Part shown: positions 1 through 9,680 of the stretch, in pieces
How the letters are laid out: each line of letters opens with the position of its first letter
How positions within the stretch are numbered: the stretch's first letter is position 1
DNA from: a virus
Lineage: Duplodnaviria > Heunggongvirae > Uroviricota > Caudoviricetes
IMG/VR virus record: IMGVR_UViG_3300029878_000054
Span: 1 to 9,756 of that record
Reading direction: 5' to 3' (one strand)
DNA: 9,756 nt
The notes under the pieces: generated by a model
Databases searched by the model: none
What the model was told of the DNA's origin: nothing
The model's input: the letters and a program-made list of their open reading frames with translations, nothing else
Translations under genes and position numbers: made by a program

Positions 1-160
1 ATAGTGCGTTCACCGAATACGTGCGCAACAACCGTCTTCCGGAGACTGTCATACGCGTAAAACAGCCAGCGCTGGCGCGATTTAGCCCCGACATAGCCCC
101 ACTGTTCGTCCATTTCCGCGCAGACGATGACGTCACTGCCCGGCTGTATGCGCGAGGTTA
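1..160 (-). mobile_element. insB: IS1 internal fragment (partial insB, running off the left edge; IS1 left end and insA absent)
   Basis: Minus-strand translation of 1-132 reads [48 protein letters not shown], which I recognise as the N-proximal part of IS1 InsB. The IS1-like DNA stops near 160, where Ala-rich repeat DNA begins, so the element is broken internally rather than at an inverted repeat. Confidence 0.8.
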
Positions 161-393
161 GCGTTTGTTTCGCTGCTCTTTGCTGCTGCCTCGCTATTTT
201 TCGCGTTGGTTTCTGATTTTTTGGCTGCTGTCGCGGAGTTTGCCGATGCAGTTTGTGAGTCTGCTGCCGCCTGTGCGCTGTTATCCGCATTCGTCTCAGA
301 CGTTTTTGCGGCCTTCGCGGAATTTCCTGCCGCCGTTGCCGAGGAAGCTGCACTAACCCTGCGTCTGTCAGCACAGTAAAACCCGGTGTGCAT
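133..393 (-). pseudogene. Chimeric remnant ORF: side-tail-fibre-like Ala/Ser/Thr/Asn-rich repeat fragment whose last codons and stop are supplied out of frame by IS1 DNA
   Basis: 86-aa ORF with SETNA-type repeats ([20 protein letters not shown] ... [21 protein letters not shown]) resembling the shaft repeats of lambdoid Stf-family tail fibres. The N-terminus ([13 protein letters not shown]) is implausible and the frame closes 4 codons upstream. The C-terminal NLAHTAGQ-stop lies inside the IS1 fragment. Confidence 0.4.
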
Positions 394-668
394 CGTTTTT
401 GATTATTCCCGCACACTCACGCAGAAGGAATTCCCCGTCGGGCTACGGTCATGGTTAATGCGGGAATACGGCGACGATACAGCGCAGCTAAAAGGGTAAT
501 AGACGGATAGACCGGTTTATTTCATTCCACAGGATTCTGAGTGTCCCCAACTTCCTCCAATAGTCTGAGCGTACACCTATATAGTTTTAATTTTCATCAA
601 TCCATTTAACTATCGTTTAATTGTTGTCACATAGGATTCTGCCGTTTTTAACAATGCAGGATAATAAG

Positions 669-962
669 ATGAAAAAAATGTTGTTTTCTGCCGCTCTGGC
701 AATGCTTATTACAGGATGTGCTCAACAGACGTTTACTGTTGGAAACAAACCGACAGCAGTAACACCAAAGGAAACCATCACCCATCACTTCTTCGTTTCG
801 GGAATTGGACAGGAGAAAACTGTCGATGCAGCCAAAATTTGTGGCGGCGCAGAAAATGTTGTTAAAACAGAAACCCAGCAAACATTCGTAAATGGATTGC
901 TCGGTTTTATTACTTTAGGCATTTATACTCCGCTGGAAGCGCGTGTGTATTGCTCACAATAA
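669..962 (+). CDS. borD: Bor-family outer-membrane lipoprotein (lambda Bor / serum-resistance lipoprotein homolog), 97 aa
   Basis: MKKMLFSAALAMLITGC... has a signal peptide with lipobox ITGC and matches lambda Bor almost along its length. AGGA lies 7 nt upstream of the ATG at 669. The ORF-track start at 621 is a TTG extension and is not used. Confidence 0.9.
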   Translation: MKKMLFSAALAMLITGCAQQTFTVGNKPTAVTPKETITHHFFVSGIGQEKTVDAAKICGGAENVVKTETQQTFVNGLLGFITLGIYTPLEARVYCSQ

Positions 963-972
963 TTGCATGAGT

Positions 973-990
973 TGCCCATCGATATGGGCA
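973..990. terminator. Hairpin between convergent bor and Rz (stem TGCCCAT / ATGGGCA, 4-nt loop); possible weak bidirectional terminator
   Basis: 7-bp perfect inverted repeat seen directly in the 31-bp gap between the bor stop (962) and the Rz/Rz1 stop (994). No U-tract on either side, hence low confidence. Confidence 0.3.
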
Positions 991-993
991 GCT

Positions 994-1455
994 CTATCTG
1001 CACTGCTCATTAATATACTTCTGGGTTCCTTCCAGTTGTTTTTGCATAGTGATCAGCCTCTCTCTGAGGGTGAAATAATCCCGTTCAGCGGTGTCTGCCA
1101 GTCGGGGGGAGGCTGCATTATCCACGCCGGAGGCGGTGGTGGCTTCACGCACTGACTGACAGACTGCTTTGATGTGCAACCGACGACGACCAGCGGCAAC
1201 ATCATCACGCAGAGCATCATTTTCAGCTTTCGCATCAGCTAACTCCTTCGTGTATTTTGCATCGAGCGCAGCAACATCACGCTGACGCATCTGCATGTCA
1301 GTAATTGCCGCGTTCGCCAGCTTCAGTTCTCTGGCATTTTTGTCGCGCTGGGCTTTGTAGGTAATGGCGTTATCACGGTAATGATTAACAGCCCATGACA
1401 GGCCGACGATGATGCAGATAACCAGAGCGGAGATAATCGCGGTTACTCTGTTCAT
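994..1455 (-). CDS. rzpD: Rz-type i-spanin (inner-membrane spanin subunit), 153 aa
   Basis: N-terminal TM helix ([18 protein letters not shown]) followed by a charged coiled-coil-like region; near-identical to DLP12 RzpD as I recall it. The ATG at 1455 overlaps the endolysin stop (ATGA arrangement). The ORF-track start at 1467 is GTG. Confidence 0.85.
1053..1235 (-). CDS. rzoD: Rz1-type o-spanin (outer-membrane lipoprotein), 60 aa, embedded in the +1 frame of Rz
   Basis: [20 protein letters not shown]... has a signal peptide with lipobox VVGC and a proline-rich mature part ([15 protein letters not shown]); it lies wholly inside Rz in another frame, the classic Rz/Rz1 arrangement. Confidence 0.8.
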
Positions 1456-1949
1456 TGCTGACCCCACAAACAGATTTCACGCTCAATCTCACGACGAGTC
1501 ATGAGACCTTTCCATTGCTTACCGCCAGCATATGTCCAGCGACGTAGCTGATCACATGCGCCTTTGATATCGCCCTGGTTTATTTTGCGAAGAAGCGTCG
1601 ATGTTCTGAAATTGCCAGCACCCACGTTGTAAACGAATGAGTAAAGAGCGCCGCGCATTGTTTCCGGTATATCGACTTTGATGTACGGGTTAATTTGTCT
1701 GGCGACCGTGGCAAGGTCTTTATTCAGGAGGGCTTTGCATTCTGCTTTGGTATACGTTTTACCGAGCATGATGTCTTTTCCTGTATGCCCGTGACATACA
1801 GTCCATACACCAACAATATCTTTGTATGGTATGTAGCTGACACCTTCCAGACCATCGTTACCACTTGGGCCAGTAATTAACACTGATGCTATAGCAATTG
1901 CTCCGCCACCAATAGCAGCAGCAACGGCTTTTCGTAATGATGGAGGCAT
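1452..1949 (-). CDS. rrrD: SAR endolysin (phage lysozyme, T4-lysozyme-like, phage 21 R type), 165 aa
   Basis: N-terminal signal-arrest-release segment ([20 protein letters not shown]) followed by a lysozyme core ([23 protein letters not shown]); the start ATG shares one nucleotide with the holin stop. Confidence 0.9.
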
Positions 1950-2164
1950 TATTCACCTCTCGCAGCCTTGCGCTTATCTTCTTTAATCTTGAAATAAAGG
2001 TTTGTCAGGTACGTCAGCAGGCCAAATACCAGGCTACCCAGCACACCTATTGCTGCCCACTGTGAGGGCGTGACTTTATCGAGCAGCTGTAAAAACCAGT
2101 AACCGGCACTACCTGCTGAGGTGCCATAGGCGACACCCGTTGTTAACTTATCCATGGATTTCAT
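1949..2164 (-). CDS. essD: Pinholin (phage 21 S-type class II holin) with dual start motif MKSMDK (antiholin/holin), 71 aa
   Basis: [71 protein letters not shown] has two TM segments and a charged C-tail. GAGGTGG lies 7-13 nt upstream of the ATG at 2164. The ORF-track start at 2209 is rejected. Confidence 0.85.
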
Positions 2165-2753
2165 AACCCCACCTCGCAGACAAAGCGGGTGTAAATTGAG
2201 GGAATACAACGTATCGCAAAAAAGCAGAAACGTAACAGACTCGGAGTCAGTGAATAACTCAGGTATTGAGTTATCAGCTAATATCGAGACTCAAAAAATG
2301 GAAAAACCAGCTCGACGGCGGGTTTAAGCTGTGTGACGAAGTAACCACTCTTAACAGCATAACCAATTTTTTACGTACGTAAACCACTGAATGATATTTA
2401 TGAGAATGCTACTGAGTGTTCAAAACACCACCACAAATACATAAGAAAACCTCAACAAATAACCAACAAATAATTTCCAGTGTTATTTTTAGCCGATTTA
2501 AATTGAACCTTCAAATTATAGAGCGCTTATAAATAACAGCCGTTAATATAAATTGGCTAATAGATTTATTTTTATTCAGCCAAGAGCTATGAATAGGATT
2601 CGATAGAAAAAAGTTCAGATAAAAATAGAGATCTACTTCACAAATCAAACGAGAAACCAAAACTTACATCTTGAAATAATCACATTGATTAGATGAATAT
2701 TTATCGCGCAGTGACATCATTTTTTAATAATAGTTCAAAAAAAAGGGCTCACG

Positions 2754-3851
2754 ATGAAAAAATTAACAGTGGCAATTTCTGCTGTAGCTGCATCAGTACT
2801 GATGGCGATGTCTGCTCAGGCAGCTGAAATTTATAATAAAGACAGTAACAAGCTGGATCTGTACGGGAAAGTTAATGCCAAGCACTACTTCTCCTCTAAT
2901 GATGCAGATGATGGTGATACTACTTATGCCCGTCTTGGCTTCAAAGGTGAAACCCAAATCAACGATCAACTGACTGGTTTCGGTCAGTGGGAATATGAAT
3001 TCAAAGGCAACCGCGCTGAATCTCAAGGTTCCTCCAAAGACAAAACCCGTCTTGCATTTGCAGGCCTGAAATTCGGTGACTACGGCTCAATCGATTACGG
3101 CCGTAACTACGGTGTAGCATACGACATCGGTGCGTGGACTGACGTTCTGCCAGAATTCGGTGGCGATACCTGGACCCAAACAGATGTGTTCATGACTGGT
3201 CGCACCACTGGTGTTGCAACCTATCGTAACAACGACTTCTTTGGTCTGGTTGATGGTCTGAACTTTGCTGCTCAGTACCAAGGCAAAAACGATCGTAGCG
3301 ATTTCGATAACTACACTGAAGGTAACGGTGATGGCTTCGGTTTCTCTGCTACCTATGAATACGAAGGATTCGGTATCGGTGCAACTTATGCGAAATCTGA
3401 TCGTACCGACACTCAAGTTAATGCAGGGAAAGTTCTTCCTGAAGTATTTGCTTCCGGTAAAAATGCAGAAGTTTGGGCCGCAGGTCTGAAATATGACGCT
3501 AACAACATTTACCTGGCCACTACCTATTCTGAAACCCAGAATATGACTGTATTTGCTGATCACTTCGTTGCTAATAAAGCCCAAAACTTCGAAGCTGTTG
3601 CACAATATCAGTTCGATTTCGGTCTGCGTCCGTCCGTTGCTTACCTGCAATCTAAAGGTAAAGATCTTGGAGTATGGGGCGATCAGGACTTAGTCAAATA
3701 TGTTGATGTAGGTGCAACCTATTACTTCAACAAAAATATGTCTACTTTCGTTGATTACAAAATCAACCTGCTTGACAAAAATGACTTCACTAAAGCACTC
3801 GGTGTAAGCACTGATGACATCGTTGCTGTAGGTCTGGTTTACCAGTTCTAA
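2754..3851 (+). CDS. nmpC: General-diffusion outer-membrane porin, NmpC/OmpD type (OmpC/OmpF/PhoE family), 365 aa, apparently intact
   Basis: Signal peptide ending AQA, then AEIYNKD; porin-family sequence throughout; C-terminal ...VGLVYQF with terminal Phe. High-expression-style codon usage. It sits between Q and the lysis cassette on the opposite strand, as nmpC does in DLP12. Confidence 0.93.
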
Positions 3852-3860
3852 TCTGATTAC

Positions 3861-3901
3861 GAAAAAGATATGTTGCGGGAGGCGTTGCCTCCCCAACATA
3901 T
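3861..3901 (-). terminator. Rho-independent terminator for minus-strand (late, Q-side) transcription; candidate tR'-like terminator
   Basis: On the minus strand this is ATATGTTGGGGAGGCAACGCCTCCCGCAACATAT followed by CTTTTTC: a ~15-bp stem with one bulge and a 3-nt loop, then a U-tract. It is read directly from the sequence. Confidence 0.5.
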
Positions 3902-3988
3902 AAGTGGCTCCCTCAAGCCACTTCCTTTAGAAGCACAACCTTGCTTCTAACTATATAAACCTTCTGTTATATATTACCCTTTATTTTT

Positions 3989-4016
3989 GGGGGCGTCTCA
4001 ACGCCCCATTTTTAAT
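3989..4016 (+). terminator. Rho-independent terminator for plus-strand transcription (likely the distal terminator of the porin gene)
   Basis: GGGGGCGT-ctca-ACGCCCC followed by ATTTTTAAT on the plus strand; hairpins at 3902-3928 (AAGTGGCT/AGCCACTT then CCTTT) and 3927-3950 (TTAGAAGCA/TGCTTCTAA) lie just upstream. Confidence 0.5.
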
Positions 4017-4040
4017 AATTTTTAGTAAACAATTGGCATA

Positions 4041-4424
4041 TTAATTAGAGTTATTAACAACGATATCCATCTCTAACCGGATATCTAATGCCATTAACAT
4101 CCCTTCAATTATGCCCTCAGCCTTCTGTAACCTTTTCCCGATATAACCATCAGAGCAGCAATGCTTACCTGCCAGTGACATGAATGTCATACCGACTACA
4201 TAATAATCTACTAATAAATCGTGCAAATCGCTGTTGTTCTTTTTCAGACGGGCCATGCACCCGCAAATGATCATCGCGTCATCGTCACAACATTGCGGGC
4301 GAGATTTTACTTTTGAAGGAATTAATCCCTTAAAACCGGCGGCAATGGACGACCAGGTCACATCTTCATGATTATTAGCCGCCCACGCTCCCCAACGCTC
4401 AAGAACCATCTGAATATCACGCAT
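4041..4424 (-). CDS. quuD: Late-gene antiterminator Q (DLP12 QuuD type), 127 aa
   Basis: [24 protein letters not shown]...[18 protein letters not shown]...HCCSDGY matches QuuD as I remember it, including the Cys-rich zinc-binding region. Start chosen at MRDIQ (4424) rather than the ORF-track start at 4439. Confidence 0.85.
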
Positions 4425-4509
4425 CAACTTACTCCACAAAAATCAGACCAGAACGCCAATCACAAGCAAAAATCAACAAAACAGTATTAGTTGATTGTTA
4501 TCTCTGACT

Positions 4510-4632
4510 TCATACTCCTGCTCCTGTCAGGGTTTTGGCGTAATTCTTCAGTATTCGGTAATCGGTCAAAACAGAACCGGGGAAACGATATAAGCGCAGA
4601 TGCCCCCAGCGGTGGCGAAGAAGTTCTGCCAT
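4510..4632 (-). CDS. Small ORF (40 aa) between rusA and Q, at the position of ylcG in DLP12
   Basis: Hand translation of the minus strand gives MAELLRHRWGHLRLYRFPGSVLTDYRILKNYAKTLTGAGV-stop, starting 14 nt after the rusA stop. It is below the ORF-track size cut-off. No strong SD; identity to YlcG not verified. Confidence 0.4.
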   Translation of the reverse strand: MAELLRHRWGHLRLYRFPGSVLTDYRILKNYAKTLTGAGV

Positions 4633-4646
4633 ATAAAACTCAAACA

Positions 4647-5009
4647 TCATTCATTCCCCATTTCGGTGATGGTCAGTTCCAGCCTCCCACCTTTGGTAAC
4701 GGGCATCTTCACAACGCGGTAATCAACGACCTGAGCATCATCCAGCCAGAAACCTGCTTTAGTGAGTGCGTCAAAAGCGGCTTTTTGCAGATTATCCAGG
4801 TCACGGCGACGGCGATCCGGCATGTGGCACTCAATGCGGATTTTCACAGGCATAGCCAGGCCGATATCCAGCATTGCGTTTTTAATGATTCGGGCGACGT
4901 TATCGCGGTATGCCTGCCCCTCTGCGCTGATGTGCGTGCGCCCGCGATTATGGCGGTAATAGCGATTATTGCTCGGAGGCCAGGGTAATGTGATGCTGTA
5001 GGTATTCAC
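4647..5009 (-). CDS. rusA: Crossover-junction endodeoxyribonuclease RusA (Holliday-junction resolvase), 120 aa
   Basis: [26 protein letters not shown]...[51 protein letters not shown] is essentially the K-12 RusA sequence as I recall it; the start overlaps the ybcO stop (ATGA). Confidence 0.95.
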
Positions 5010-5296
5010 GCCTTAATAACCCCCTCTTTCAGCCAGATAACCTGTGTTCTCGCCATACCTTCCAGCGCACATTCTTTTGCATATGCAGCATCGACAAAAT
5101 GTGTGCGGCGGTCGATTTCGTCGTGGCAGGCAGAACATGCAATGGTGGCAATCAGGTCTGGCGGTTTGATACCGGTACCGCACAATCCAGCCAGCCGGAT
5201 ATGTGCCAGTACAGACGTTTCAGGGTTGCCATTACATACGCCAGGGATTCTTACCTGGCATTCCCGACCACGCGCTGCTTTTCTCAAATCAGCCAT
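5006..5296 (-). CDS. ybcO: YbcO-family protein (DUF1364, Cys-rich putative nuclease of lambdoid nin regions), 96 aa
   Basis: [62 protein letters not shown]... with a strong SD (AGGAGG) before the ATG at 5296; the ORF-track extension to 5335 uses a TTG and is rejected. Confidence 0.85.
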
Positions 5297-5459
5297 GACT
5301 CCTCCTTGCTGCCAGTCGCAACCATTTTTTATCAACCAAGCTGGCGGTATATCCGAGCAGTGTTGGTATTTCGGAAGGCTTCAGCTCAGGTTTACGCTTA
5401 CGACGATTTGGTACTCTGTAAATGTGCCCGTTCATGACACGAATAAGCGGTGTAGCCAT
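5289..5459 (-). CDS. ninE: NinE-family small protein, 56 aa
   Basis: Hand translation gives [56 protein letters not shown]-stop, with the basic KRKP...WLR pattern of lambda NinE. The start shares one nucleotide with the ybcN stop and the end overlaps the ybcO start by 8 nt. Not in the ORF track because of its size. Confidence 0.6.
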   Translation of the reverse strand: MATPLIRVMNGHIYRVPNRRKRKPELKPSEIPTLLGYTASLVDKKWLRLAARRSHG

Positions 5460-5914
5460 TACGCCTCCTGCTTGTCGCGCAGCAGCTGGAACTCGCAGCT
5501 CTGCGGAATAGTCAGGTGGCAGCCAATATTCATCGCCCAGGCTTCAACCTTACACAGGAAGACATACATCTCTCCGGTATCAAGATCGGAGGTATGGCGT
5601 AACGACTGGATAGTAGTGATTTCGCCGGTTACGACATCAACCAAGTCCTTGGTTTCATAACCGAGGTATGTGTGTTTGAGTGCATCTTTTACCCATACTG
5701 CAGTAGCGAACGTTTTCCCCCTGCTGATGAGGTACTCGCTGATTTCGCTGTACCACATGTGGCTGAGTGCATTCTGGGAAAGACTGCGTCTCTCGCGCCA
5801 CGGTTTAAGCACCATGCGAAAGCATTTTCCGTCCTCCAGATAAGGCTGGATCTGCTGACCGATAGTGGTGAAGTTACCGCGATGTAATTTGATGCCGTCT
5901 TGTGGGAGGTTCAC
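5459..5914 (-). CDS. ybcN: NinB/Orf-family recombination protein (DLP12 YbcN-like), 151 aa, GTG start
   Basis: Contains the [12 protein letters not shown] motif characteristic of NinB-family proteins; GGAGGTG sits 4-10 nt upstream of the GTG at 5914-5912. Confidence 0.85.
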
Positions 5915-6012
5915 GCTTCACCTCCGCAGAGGTCAAACGTTGGATGCAAAGAATCGCAGGTGCATTTCTGCATCTGTGAAGGGAGAAGAGAGTTTAGATT
6001 GTATGTGCGCAT
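5911..6012 (-). CDS. Small ORF (33 aa) upstream of and overlapping the ybcN start, at the position of ylcH in DLP12
   Basis: Minus-strand hand translation gives [33 protein letters not shown]-stop; its TGA overlaps the ybcN GTG (GTGA). Length equals K-12 ylcH (33 aa) as I recall, but the sequence identity is not verified. Confidence 0.35.
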
Positions 6013-6301
6013 AAACGTCCCCGTTTAGCGCAGAAGTCACCGGAGGTGTTCAGGCTCCGATGCGATAATTATGACGATCTGATTTTGGAAAATCAAATTT
6101 AAGTAACCGCCAACCTATAATTTTCAATCAAGATTTCATTTATTAGCTCACTCATATAAAAATACATTACAACGTTTTTATCTCTTAATTTATGAAGGCA
6201 ACCTCGAAAAACAAATCACCCAAACACTTTAAAACAATTAAACCCGTTTAAAATTACAATTACATTTAGAAAGCAAACTTTCAAAAGATGTGATGATACA
6301 A

Positions 6302-6330
6302 TTGCATAAAACAAATACTTGGGGTAAAAT
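6302..6330 (+). promoter_or_regulatory. Candidate sigma70 promoter for the AT-rich cargo operon (TTGCAT-N17-TAAAAT)
   Basis: -35-like TTGCAT at 6302-6307 and -10-like TAAAAT at 6325-6330 with 17-nt spacing, about 100 nt upstream of the first ATG of the island. AT-rich DNA generates such matches easily, hence low confidence. Confidence 0.3.
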
Positions 6331-6436
6331 ATAAAAATAACACTCCCAGCTTAACGCTAGGTGGCGGTAGCGTGTATTTTTCAAATACGCCTATCACCCC
6401 ATTATGTTTTTTCATATTTAAGAGATTGGTTATATA

Positions 6437-6811
6437 ATGGAACTAATATACACTTATATCCACAATTATAAAGGTTTAAATAAGCTGTCCCTCCCCACCT
6501 CAAGTAAATTTACCTTTAGCCATAAAGGTAACGTCCTTACAATTGCTAAGAAAGATTTAAGTCGTGACTATTATAGCAATATTCCCTGTACATTAATTTT
6601 AGGGAAAAATGGTGTTGGAAAGTCATCAATTTTAGATTTCATTAGTAGCTTTATTTACGATTTTGAAGGTAGCGGTTATAGCATCTGGAATGAAAATGAT
6701 AAACTTATAATTATCACAAGCAATTGCAAACCTCCTGTAATATTATCCAAAATGCAAACGGAACTGATTGATAATAATGAACATTTTTTAGAAGAAACAA
6801 AATCAATCTAA
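6437..6811 (+). CDS. N-terminal portion of an ABC/AAA15-type ATPase (Walker A only); probably the 5' half of a gene split by a frameshift
   Basis: P-loop LILGKNGVGKSSILD at residues ~53-67; no Walker B, signature or H-loop motif in this ORF. The frame ends at 6811, 31 nt after the downstream frame opens. Confidence 0.7.
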   Translation: MELIYTYIHNYKGLNKLSLPTSSKFTFSHKGNVLTIAKKDLSRDYYSNIPCTLILGKNGVGKSSILDFISSFIYDFEGSGYSIWNENDKLIIITSNCKPPVILSKMQTELIDNNEHFLEETKSI

Positions 6812-6843
6812 TAAAGATAAATAACACAATCGACCTCAAAAGT

Positions 6844-8223
6844 ATGTTAGTTGGACAAAAAAAGAAAAAAAACGATTCGATTTCTAAAGATTTATCACTG
6901 TCATATTTTTTGCAAGGCAGTAAAACACGCAATAAGAAATTACTCAAGCAATTAATTTCATTTTCAGACCACAGTTCATGGGCTAAAGACAATTTATCAA
7001 GACTTAATACTAAATTTCAATTTGAAATAGAAAACTCACCAGTATATAAAATAAATTCTATTATAAAAAACAATGATATTGGTGACAAAGGACTTTTTGG
7101 AGCTATTGAATACTTTTTTGATACGTTGAATGATAGAATTAAAAACAATAAACTCCCTAGATATATTGAACGTGATTTAGATTCTTTAGGTATTTCACTT
7201 GTGGATATACTCAATCATGGGATAGATTACGATGAAGATTTTATTATTAGCATTATTTTTAACAAAGAAAGATCATTAAATTTCCTCGCAACCTTTTCAT
7301 ATCACAAAATAATTTACTTGATGCTTTTGCCTGCAATAACATGGCATTTACTCAAGACATCAAAAATCCCTAAAGACATATGTGAGACTGTTTATTTATT
7401 TTGCTTGTGTCGCGCGTATCTTGAAGAAAAAGATCCAGCAAAAACTATATTAGAGACTTTAGATGAATTTAACGTTAATGTTAAATTTCAGTCAAAAATA
7501 GAAATGTTATCTGAACATATCTCCGACATTATAGGTAATATAGCTGATATATTAGAAAACACAGCAAGAGACCCAGTTGATAGTTTATCTTTCACAGTTG
7601 AAGAACCAAAGCAGATTATGGAGTTAATAAGATTAGTTGATAGGTTACCAAATGGCGTATCATCGCGATTTAAGTATGGTTGGGATTCACTTAGTTCAGG
7701 AGAGTTTGCAAAATTAAACCTTTTCAATCAACTTTATGATTCTATAGAACATAGCAACAGCAAAAATATTATAATATTATTAGATGAGTGTGATTTATAT
7801 CTACACCCTGAATGGCAACGAGTTATTTTTTCAGAAATTATAGATTTAACATTAAGATATAAACAAAGTAAAAATATTCAATTAGTATTTACAACTCACT
7901 CCCCTATACTCGCAAGTGATTTTTTGCCATCAGATATAATATATCTTGAAAGAGATCATAATCAAGGAACCTATACTAAGAAAGTAGAGTTTGGTTTCGG
8001 AGCAACCATATCAGAATTATATATAAATGGTTTTTTTATTGATGCTACAATAGGACAGCACGCACATAATTATCTAAACTCAATAATAAAAAACTCAGAT
8101 GACGGTAATTTAAATAAACATCAAAAAACCATACTATCACAAATTAAAAATAAACTTCTCATAAATCTTATTGATCTGAAGTTAAACAAAAACAATGATA
8201 AAACAGATTCTTTTGAGAAATGA
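6844..8223 (+). CDS. C-terminal portion of the same ABC/AAA15-type ATPase (signature, Walker B and H-loop motifs); a fused model 6437..8223 gives ~595 aa if one T is added to the T6 run at 6784-6789
   Basis: LSSGE signature-like motif, Walker B IIILLDECDLYLHP and H-loop VFTTHSP; no Walker A. The frame is open upstream to 6781 with no ATG before 6844. Confidence 0.7.
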   Translation: MLVGQKKKKNDSISKDLSLSYFLQGSKTRNKKLLKQLISFSDHSSWAKDNLSRLNTKFQFEIENSPVYKINSIIKNNDIGDKGLFGAIEYFFDTLNDRIKNNKLPRYIERDLDSLGISLVDILNHGIDYDEDFIISIIFNKERSLNFLATFSYHKIIYLMLLPAITWHLLKTSKIPKDICETVYLFCLCRAYLEEKDPAKTILETLDEFNVNVKFQSKIEMLSEHISDIIGNIADILENTARDPVDSLSFTVEEPKQIMELIRLVDRLPNGVSSRFKYGWDSLSSGEFAKLNLFNQLYDSIEHSNSKNIIILLDECDLYLHPEWQRVIFSEIIDLTLRYKQSKNIQLVFTTHSPILASDFLPSDIIYLERDHNQGTYTKKVEFGFGATISELYINGFFIDATIGQHAHNYLNSIIKNSDDGNLNKHQKTILSQIKNKLLINLIDLKLNKNNDKTDSFEK

Positions 8224-8741
8224 GTAAAAAAATGATAAAAATAAACAAAGACTTCAATGTTGATGTAAAAATATCCTTTTCTAAAATAGTAAGCAAAGTT
8301 AATAAACGCGTGAAGCAGAGGAAGTTACTGAACATTACTCCCGATGAAGTAGAGTTTCTAAATACAATCAACAAAAAAACTATCAGAAAATTAGTTTTTT
8401 CAAAACCCAAACGATTAAAAAATATAATCATCAAAATATACAACAAACACCCAATTGTGTGTGAGTACTATTCTCCTGATTATTTTTTAAGGCACTTAAA
8501 TTTACAACCATTAACAAACCTACAATTACCTTTAAAAACAAAAGAAAACAAAAAAATAGTTTATAATGAACTAGCACATGCCATCAAAATAATCACATCT
8601 TTCTCTCAAACTACACAAAGCCTAATACTTGAGGATATATTAAATACACATTTCTCACCACAAAAATTATCTAGTTTAAGAGATAAGATTCTTAATCTTA
8701 TAAGTATCAAGAATGGTGGTCCTAAAGGAAAATACCATTAA
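8220..8741 (+). CDS. Hypothetical lysine-rich basic protein, 173 aa, unknown function
   Basis: ORF whose ATG overlaps the stop of the ATPase ORF (ATGA); no recognisable catalytic motif. An alternative start at 8232 (MIKINK) is possible. Same extreme AT-richness as its neighbours. Confidence 0.5.
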   Translation: MSKKMIKINKDFNVDVKISFSKIVSKVNKRVKQRKLLNITPDEVEFLNTINKKTIRKLVFSKPKRLKNIIIKIYNKHPIVCEYYSPDYFLRHLNLQPLTNLQLPLKTKENKKIVYNELAHAIKIITSFSQTTQSLILEDILNTHFSPQKLSSLRDKILNLISIKNGGPKGKYH

Positions 8742-9423
8742 GTTATTTCCATCATGGGTTAAAAATATTTCTGAAATATTTAAATACTCACTTATTGATA
8801 GAGAAACAGCGTATCAATTGAACAGTTTTTTAGACATTAGCATATGCCCATATTGCAACAGTGAAGAAATTGAACAAGTAGAAGACCATACAGGTACTAG
8901 CTACAGGCCAGCATTTGATCATTTCATACCTAAGTACAAATATCCGTTGATCTCCTTTAGTTTATTTAACTTAATTCCTAGCTGCACTAAATGCAATAGT
9001 ACTTATAAAAAATCACTCGATCCGATCATGAGCCCATTTTCAAATCCTTTTCTTGAAGGTGTAAATGACACTCAGCTTTTTGATTTTAATTATGACATTG
9101 ATTATATATATAGAGATGGCCAAATTGATGATGATCACATTCAAATTATACTAAAAAAACAAAAAAACAACATCGATGAAAACATGGCTAAACTTAGCAT
9201 AGAGAATAGATATAATTCACGCATTAGAAAGAAAGCAGTTAGATTAATTGCAAAGAGAGCATTTGATCTAAAAGCTTATGAAGAAAATTTCATTATAGAA
9301 CCAACTCTTTTCGCTACTTTCGGTTACGAGACTAACATTGAGCCGCTAAAGCATATGCATAAAAAACTTACTCAAGATGCAATATTAGTATTCTGCAACA
9401 AACAAGTACCGTTAATTGAATAA
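8713..9423 (+). CDS. HNH (His-Me finger) endonuclease-domain protein, 236 aa
   Basis: CPYC ... (22 aa) ... DHFIP ... NLIPS ... CTKCN, i.e. the CxxC / DH / N / CxxC arrangement typical of HNH nucleases, in the N-terminal half. The start overlaps the preceding ORF by 29 nt. Confidence 0.7.
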   Translation: MVVLKENTIKLFPSWVKNISEIFKYSLIDRETAYQLNSFLDISICPYCNSEEIEQVEDHTGTSYRPAFDHFIPKYKYPLISFSLFNLIPSCTKCNSTYKKSLDPIMSPFSNPFLEGVNDTQLFDFNYDIDYIYRDGQIDDDHIQIILKKQKNNIDENMAKLSIENRYNSRIRKKAVRLIAKRAFDLKAYEENFIIEPTLFATFGYETNIEPLKHMHKKLTQDAILVFCNKQVPLIE

Positions 9424-9680
9424 GTAAAATGAAAGGATATCGAGCTATATAATGTAGTATGTCGAAAAATCAAACAGAAAAAAATCGAATAGTTACACTG
9501 TGCTCGGTGCTGTCTTCATGCTCCGTTCCTCTCGTAGGCTAGTAAAATTCGCGTCATCACCGGGCTTGGGGGCCATCATCGAAAATCTGATTGGTGCTTT
9601 TGTGCCAAGAGATTTCCTCTTCGGTTACCAATCGGTAGTGAATCGTTCGCTAGATATTGCTGACATCGACCAGATCGCCC

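Follow-up and report, generated by a model that had tools for sequence, protein, structure and literature searches.

A porin gene within a defective prophage

The window, by which we mean the whole 9,756-nucleotide stretch of DNA analysed here, carries a porin gene embedded among the genes of a lambdoid prophage (Table 1). It is the only open reading frame listed at its position on the plus strand, and it lies between the antiterminator gene Q on one side and the holin, lysozyme, Rz and Rz1 genes on the other, all of which are encoded on the minus strand. This arrangement agrees with the initial annotation, made from the sequence alone, which had placed an oppositely oriented porin between Q and the lysis genes. 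Farther phage genes (rusA, ybcO and ybcN) also occupy the other strand, and the sole neighbor sharing the orientation of the porin is a bor/iss lipoprotein gene, itself a known accessory gene. The bor/iss region directly follows a tail-fibre fragment, and packaging, head and tail genes are missing. Truncated by IS1 beside the tail-fibre fragment, the prophage is defective, so that the porin is effectively a resident chromosomal gene.

Table 1. Features of the porin locus and its phage surroundings (window coordinates).
Feature	Position	Strand	Basis or remark
IS1 piece	1-163
86-aa ORF	133-393		matches only an internal segment of tail-fibre families
bor/iss lipoprotein gene	621-962	+	known accessory gene
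Rz, rzpD	994-1455/1467	-	Pfam Phage_lysis; RefSeq
Rz1, rzoD	1053-1235	-	Pfam Rz1; RefSeq
Lysozyme, rrrD	1452-1949	-	Pfam Phage_lysozyme; RefSeq
Holin, essD, P21-type	1949-2164/2209	-	Pfam Phage_holin_2_1; RefSeq
Porin upstream region/leader, AT-rich	2210-2753	+	composition (30-35% GC)
Putative CRP sites (two)	about 2329-2349; about 2625-2645		J02580 annotation of PA-2 lc, conserved in the window
NmpC/Lc porin ORF	2754-3851	+	365 aa, ATG start, no internal stop (ORF listing)
Signal peptide, 23 aa	2754-2822	+	sig_peptide feature of PA-2 lc; solved mature chains start at residue 24
Mature NmpC/Lc porin, 342 aa plus stop codon	2823-3851	+	full length (Pfam, NCBIfam, structure-chain alignment)
CTAA, IS5 target in K-12 nmpC	3790-3793	+	uninterrupted in the window; K-12 junctions and reconstruction
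IpeX-equivalent 3' UTR (inferred ends)	3852-4018	+	published 167-nt length and terminator position
Candidate tR'-like terminator of a short late-promoter transcript	hairpin 3868-3901; five T 3862-3866	-	sequence and minus-strand fold
Intrinsic terminator	stem 3990-4007; T-run 4009-4013	+	terminator search
Antiterminator Q, quuD	4041-4439 (RefSeq start at 4424)	-	Pfam Phage_antitermQ, E = 1e-53; quuD in G4/9, AW1.7, TW10828

An intact nmpC/lc gene

The initial annotation had described an uninterrupted 365-residue frame with a signal peptide and a porin C-terminus and had proposed alignment as a check of its length, and each of these points is borne out. The Pfam Porin_1 profile (PF00267) matches the ORF over positions 1-337 of 337 (E = 1e-156) with no truncation, and residues 24-365 align with the entire mature chains of solved OmpC, OmpK36, PhoE and OmpF structures (2xe2, 1pho, 1opf and others), revealing no premature stop and no missing strands. 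The ORF also passes the NCBIfam porin OmpC model (526 bits versus a cutoff of 484), which is a subfamily model and not an equivalog. The precursor opens with a signal peptide of the form MKK...SAQA, continues into the mature sequence AEIYNKD, which follows the general porin pattern AE(I/V)YNKD, and ends in ...VGLVYQF as OmpC and OmpF do; the terminal Phe is present and presumably serves as the porin assembly signal. Across seven aligned porins, OmpC, OmpF and OmpD-type sequences included, K39, R60, R99, R150, D130, E134, the PEFGGD segment and the terminal YQF form invariant columns. From established knowledge of OmpF, we take PEFGGD to be the loop-3 motif and the six charged residues to belong to the pore constriction. 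Given 62-66% identity to solved porins, we infer that the protein would form a 16-strand barrel trimer of the OmpC/OmpF type that conducts solutes. Pore formation by NmpC in lipid bilayers is credited to Hindahl et al. 1984 in a citing paper. An antisense ORF at 3690-3899, listed as 'ORF1' in the PA-2 record, was rejected as spurious, since it is contained within the porin gene and has no match among phage protein families.

The gene is an intact nmpC, equivalent to lc of phage PA-2 and thus a well-known porin gene of DLP12-type lambdoid prophages of E. coli. Its product is identical to RefSeq WP_000737266.1 and to the proteins of strains G4/9, AW1.7 and TW10828. It differs at 2 of 365 residues (G149Q, T151A) from NmpC of the K-12 prophage DLP12 (b0553, a pseudogene) once IS5 is removed, and at two positions (R99H, V154F; 99.5% identity) from PA-2 Lc, also known as 'protein 2', which substantiates the earlier assignment to an intact NmpC-type porin. 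The exact protein is found on at least 1000 contigs, under names that include 'outer membrane porin protein LC', so a sequencing error that hides a frameshift is unlikely.

The same porin is also a phage protein. Phages PhiR26_1 and PhiR30_1, both active temperate phages, carry 100% identical porins, a full-length relative is present in 42 phage records, and the PHROG family phrog_410 covers the protein end to end. These data bear on a reading in which the gene is an ordinary chromosomal OmpC paralogue that adjoins phage remnants and is not phage cargo. The defective state of the prophage, the NCBIfam OmpC score above cutoff and the name 'porin OmpC' in some sources would suit it; E. coli OmpC, however, is only 62% identical, the Q-holin position recurs in PA-2 and in the 42 sequenced phages, some of them with the 100% identical protein, and the match to a phage protein family spans the whole porin. 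The presence of the porin at the same position in active phage genomes refutes this reading, to which we assign practically no probability.

The IS5 site and the prevalence of intact copies

The statement in the initial annotation that the K-12 copy of nmpC is inactivated by IS5 was verified in NC_000913. There, IS5 is inserted at a CTAA target 58 nt before the stop codon, a site that is uninterrupted in the window, and the joined K-12 nmpC fragments encode a 365-aa protein. With the insertion in place, the K-12 frame leaves the porin after residue 346, continues for eight unrelated residues and stops at codon 356; the last 19 residues of the porin are gone, including the C-terminal strand and the terminal Phe.

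A 1.85-kb segment of the locus is matched in 3647 of 5426 complete E. coli genomes, with a coverage of at least 80% in 2465 of these. To score disruption, a 111-nt query spanning the IS5 site was searched against complete E. coli genomes. It matched 1059 genomes, in 760 of which the segment is unbroken. Twelve partial matches were listed: in ten the break falls on the IS5 position (query 45-53), and one further match stops at query position 75; those ten comprise eight laboratory or K-12 strains, one pig isolate and one human isolate. Since the segment is mostly uninterrupted and the listed breaks fall mainly in laboratory and K-12 strains, the intact gene is the normal state and the K-12 pseudogene the exception. 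An nmpC::IS5 allele in the record of phage 434 was considered as an independent disruption and rejected: the record is that of the 434B recombinant, and nmpC::IS5 sits in a block of it that is annotated as 434 non-homology yet follows DLP12 in gene order and in the position of IS5.

The 3' flank and IpeX

From the porin stop to the Q stop, 189 nt (3852-4040) are 100% identical to K-12, PA-2, AW1.7 and G4/9, unlike the leader and ORF, which vary by 0.4-3% across the same four. Folded on the porin strand, this flank gives four hairpins and, after them, an intrinsic terminator; the free energy is -62.9 kcal/mol compared to -30.4 for shuffled sequences (z = -10.1). In E. coli and E. albertii, flanks of 95% and 87% identity that sit next to different porin alleles keep the hairpins. 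Substitutions in these two variants fall mostly in loops or unpaired positions, and three pairs are broken in one of the two. One compensatory pair, in hairpin 1, was seen among three distinct flank sequences, which are too few for a claim of covariation. An Rfam scan of the whole window at E <= 1 returned only a chance snoRNA-like match; Rfam contains no IpeX family.

IpeX is described in PMC12197685, PMC5069750 and PMC8065619 as a 167-nt RNA of DLP12 and PA-2 that is processed from the phage porin transcript and represses ompC and ompF. Counting 167 nt from the porin stop codon leads to position 4018, just past the terminator, and we therefore assign 3852-4018 to IpeX. This putative sRNA region, which the initial annotation had missed, would be the part that links the porin gene to host porin levels.

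The conservation of the flank could be taken further, to mean that selection acts mainly on the IpeX RNA, or on an antisense relation to the late transcript, with the porin ORF chiefly a carrier. An identical and very strongly structured 3' flank next to a variable leader and ORF would be expected under this reading, as would the antisense position of the flank relative to the stretch just downstream of Q. Against it, the ORF is under evident purifying selection, in that it is full length with invariant pore residues and a retained codon bias, and the K-12 locus has been kept even though IS5 separates IpeX from the porin promoter there. We thus regard a primarily RNA-based role as very unlikely and consider porin and sRNA together below.

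Codon usage, leader and expression

The initial annotation had likened the codon usage of the porin to that of chromosomal porins. We compared it with K-12 ompC and ompF (NC_000913) and with the phage genes of the window, and all three measures place it nearer to the former. The effective number of codons is 36.2 for the porin, 29.0 for ompC and 37.1 for ompF, whereas the phage neighbors range from 44 to 61. With ompC and ompF as reference, the codon adaptation index of the porin (0.59) approaches the values of ompF (0.68) and ompC (0.83) and exceeds those of the phage genes (0.25-0.35), and its relative synonymous codon usage correlates at 0.91 with ompC plus ompF versus 0.66 with the pooled phage genes. 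A terminator of its own (3990-4007) and codon usage unlike that of the flanking phage genes are consistent with the proposal that the porin is a moron.

The 544-bp leader (2210-2753) is AT-rich DNA of a kind that is often silenced, and a scan of it for sigma-70 consensus sequences returned no promoter. Its identity amounts to 98.3% to PA-2, 99.4% to AW1.7 and 97% to K-12. The PA-2 lc record (J02580) marks two CRP sites, both of them conserved here; an offset of +1262 converts their coordinates to those of the window. The one at 2625-2645 (GAGATCTACTTCACA) has an aligned counterpart, TCTAGATCACA, ahead of the chromosomal OmpD-type genes, and this counterpart is a near-palindromic CRP-type site. 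Footprinting of the leader against OmpD loci recovered this shared block and no common core promoter. The porin unit may have a promoter of its own: the CRP sites are conserved, and promoter activity is known from literature on other strains.

Whether the gene is expressed can be approached through that literature. Strain AW1.7 encodes the identical protein behind the nearly identical leader and is reported to express NmpC highly and to have it in the outer membrane; expression of NmpC in a sensitive strain is reported to raise survival at 60 °C by 50- to 1000-fold (both from Ruan et al. 2011, as quoted in PMC12890032 and PMC5093140). For strain CFT073, two nmpC copies are described with strong expression at 37 °C at the RNA and protein levels, and PMC8544407 gives a 16.5-fold induction at 37 °C for the promoter of K-12 nmpC. 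Expression of the porin in the window strain is therefore plausible by analogy with strains that carry the same allele. The status of 'major porin' that the initial annotation gives it is unproven.

A contrasting reading holds that the porin is intact but silent ('quiescent') in the window strain, owing to silencing of the AT-rich leader or to repression by an sRNA, and contributes little or nothing to the outer membrane. The leader, with 30-35% GC and lacking a consensus promoter, points in this direction. So does the title of Prilipov et al. 1998, which terms nmpC of E. coli B 'quiescent' although the gene is intact, as well as a report of nmpC mRNA as a RybB target. The strong codon bias, which is of the highly expressed type, argues for an active gene, as do the reported expression in AW1.7 of an identical allele behind a 99.4% identical leader, the high expression in CFT073 at 37 °C and the promoter activity in K-12. 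In addition, the ORF has stayed intact in the 760 of 1059 genomes that retain the segment in one piece at the porin 3' end. On balance we judge silence in the window strain unlikely, yet a reading to be reckoned with.

Proposed function and convergence with the late operon

Porin identity and integrity, gene order, orientation, codon bias, the terminator, conservation of the IpeX region and prevalence were established in this analysis. On this basis we consider it highly probable that the intact nmpC/lc gene is accessory cargo of DLP12/PA-2-type lambdoid phages and prophages, a self-contained unit that acts by the published porin swap. The swap itself is drawn from reviews combined with sequence identity. 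In a lysogen, the host would transcribe the porin unit from a promoter within the AT-rich leader. The precursor would be exported by means of its Sec signal peptide and would become an additional general-diffusion porin of the outer membrane, while the 3' UTR would be processed to the IpeX sRNA, lowering OmpC and OmpF. Such an exchange of porins would alter the surface offered to phages and colicins as well as the permeability of the cell. For the window strain, transcription, protein abundance, IpeX processing and repression, and the effects on receptors and antibiotic entry derive from the literature or from inference.

The orientation of the gene suggests a further layer. The porin unit is convergent with the late operon, and Q-dependent transcription must therefore read through 1.1 kb of the porin gene in antisense before it arrives at the holin gene. 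The first ~170 nt that late transcription copies past Q are complementary to the porin 3' UTR, and within this UTR, just past the porin stop codon, the minus strand could form the hairpin of the candidate tR'-like terminator. Transcription of the porin unit might thus brake leaky expression of the lysis genes, through collision or RNA-RNA pairing, and Q-driven late transcription might conversely shut off porin and IpeX. We regard such mutual interference as distinctly unlikely. No description of it was found in the nmpC and IpeX literature consulted, and it may be the only reading offered here with some novelty.

A phage-borne porin was described in the 1970s-80s as protein 2/Lc of PA-2 and as nmpC of the qsr'/DLP12 prophage. 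The window porin is this textbook nmpC/lc, intact as usual and accompanied by its known sRNA, and as such is already known; intact nmpC is annotated in thousands of genomes, and intactness, as the common natural state, is not notable. What deserves attention is that automated names such as 'porin OmpC', 'OmpD' or 'porin' hide one or more extra prophage porins, along with an OmpC/OmpF-lowering sRNA, in many natural E. coli. This has a practical bearing on porin-loss antibiotic resistance, phage-receptor typing, heat resistance (AW1.7) and outer-membrane proteomics, fields that usually take as their reference K-12, where nmpC is broken.

Comparison with known systems

The general porins OmpC, OmpF and PhoE (2J1N, 2OMF, 1PHO) share with the window porin the family, length, loop-3 motif and C-terminus. 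Sequence identity amounts to 62% for OmpC and 58% for OmpF of E. coli, and the K-12 ompC locus adjoins micF, whereas the window porin lacks both micF and an OmpR-type context.

Relatives outside Escherichia were sought by tblastn in one genome per species and fall into two tiers. The first, at 74-79% identity (78-81% in alignment), comprises chromosomal OmpD-type porins of Salmonella enterica subsp. arizonae, Citrobacter, Enterobacter, Lelliottia and Klebsiella spallanzanii and is the closest found, in line with the NmpC/OmpD-type label of the initial annotation. The second, at 61-67%, includes extra porin copies in genomes that also have a first-tier match (Salmonella arizonae, Citrobacter sedlakii and Enterobacter species); these copies are probably OmpC-type porins. 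First-tier genes are flanked by a formate dehydrogenase gene (fdnG) and an EamA transporter gene on one side and by a GFA-family gene and an MFS transporter gene on the other, which we take to be the yddG-ompD-smvA arrangement of Salmonella. At the first-tier loci examined, among them those of Salmonella arizonae and Citrobacter braakii, neither phage genes nor an IpeX-like 3' flank was found.

Beyond the CRP-type upstream block, the OmpD-type proteins share with the window porin an almost exactly alike N-terminal half, and differences concentrate in the signal peptide and in residues 181-300. The chromosomal position of OmpD is not shared, as the window porin is flanked by phage Q and holin genes instead. 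By these sequence criteria the window porin is a member of the OmpD lineage by descent and not a positional orthologue. The gene probably descends from a chromosomal porin of this lineage that was captured by a lambdoid phage, an origin that would account for its host-like, high-expression codon bias. Porin alleles are mosaic, being identical over the first 180 residues and differing in the block 181-240, a pattern that could have arisen if prophages exchanged a variable cassette by recombination.

The two closest systems are the phage elements themselves. Positions 615-6097 of the window are collinear with K-12 DLP12 at 96-97% nucleotide identity, the only exception within this stretch being IS5 inside K-12 nmpC, and the gene order ybcN-ninE-ybcO-rusA-ylcG-quuD-nmpC-essD-rrrD-rzpD-borD is common to both. 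DLP12 additionally has ybcK, ybcL and ybcM, in place of which the window contains a low-GC island. A defence-like island of the window shows three apparent frameshifts at homopolymers (region 6780-8725). The lc region of PA-2 (GenBank J02580) matches window positions 1262-4078 with 98.2% nucleotide identity over 2.8 kb that span Rz, the lysozyme gene ('ORF2' in J02580), the leader with its two CRP sites, lc and the 3' flank, and lc is oriented against the lysis genes just as the window porin is. The two elements differ in their state: PA-2 is an active phage, whereas the element in the window is a defective prophage.

Results and discussion

The 167 nt behind the porin (nmpC) stop codon carry what corresponds in position and sequence to the published IpeX sRNA. 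This 3′ UTR (window 3852–4018, plus strand) is 100% identical to those of E. coli K-12 and phage PA-2 and folds into four hairpins and a terminator (z = −10), and IpeX has been described as an ompC/ompF repressor (PMC12197685, PMC5069750, PMC8065619). A scan of the window against Rfam returned no IpeX family. Directly past the stop codon lies a hairpin followed on the minus strand by TTTTT (together window 3862–3901), a candidate terminator that may end a short transcript from a putative late promoter downstream of Q. IpeX and the short late-promoter transcript would be antisense along their full length across window 3852–4040. The 69-aa antisense ORF at the porin 3′ end is 'ORF1' of the 1986 PA-2 record; we rejected it as a probable non-gene, as it overlaps the porin and has no match in PHROGs.

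Features located in the window
Feature	Position	Strand	Detail
Tail-fibre fragment ORF	133–393	−	86 aa
Bor/Iss outer-membrane lipoprotein gene	621–962	+	RefSeq start would be 669
Antisense ORF overlapping porin 3′ end	3690–3899	−	69 aa
Island ORF	6437–6811	+	
Island ORF	6844–8223	+	
Island ORF	8220–8741	+	
Island ORF	8713–9423	+	
Island indel 1	near 6783		T7→T6
Island indel 2	near 8225		A8→A7
Island indel 3	near 8722		TTT→T

Two porin alleles are common in E. coli prophages, and we compared the window copy (2754–3851) with the other (locus L008, 44–1123), which is 91% identical and present in many phages. The first 180 residues do not differ, whereas residues 181–240, a block taken to cover surface loops, hold 21 of the 33 differences, a mosaic pattern that suggests recombination or diversifying selection.

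The prophage is defective, as read from its left end: a partial IS1 (window 1–163, 97.5% to an IS1A copy of strain LR-50) and a tail-fibre fragment, matched by phage tail-fibre families at an internal segment only (profile positions ~125–200), run directly into ylcI–iss intergenic sequence, which makes up the window from 354 on, so that packaging and morphogenesis genes are lost. Besides the porin gene, the plus strand carries a second accessory gene, that of Bor/Iss, which the closest genomes annotate as iss ('increased serum survival').

Where DLP12, the cryptic K-12 prophage, has its ybcK/L/M region, the window carries a very low-GC island (26–31% across 6100–9500) with two genes that make up a candidate anti-phage system. 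Its first gene encodes an AAA ATPase that matches PADLOC PDC-M62A and also resembles PtuA, AriA and GajA; its partner matches PDC-M62B and is PtuB-like, with CxxC...H motifs. Both genes are intact (595 and 397 aa) in ETEC strain TW10828, which is 99.86% identical, whereas in the window three indels break each into two pieces. All three are losses of bases from short T or A runs, and they represent either genuine inactivation or sequencing errors at homopolymers.

The genome of phage 434B (locus L089, OL657227.1, 2501–4797) carries nmpC with IS5 inserted after codon 346, within a block annotated as non-434 DNA. Because its gene order is that of DLP12 and its IS5 position that of K-12, this block looks like the DLP12 Q–nmpC–lysis block, gained by recombination from a K-12 host.
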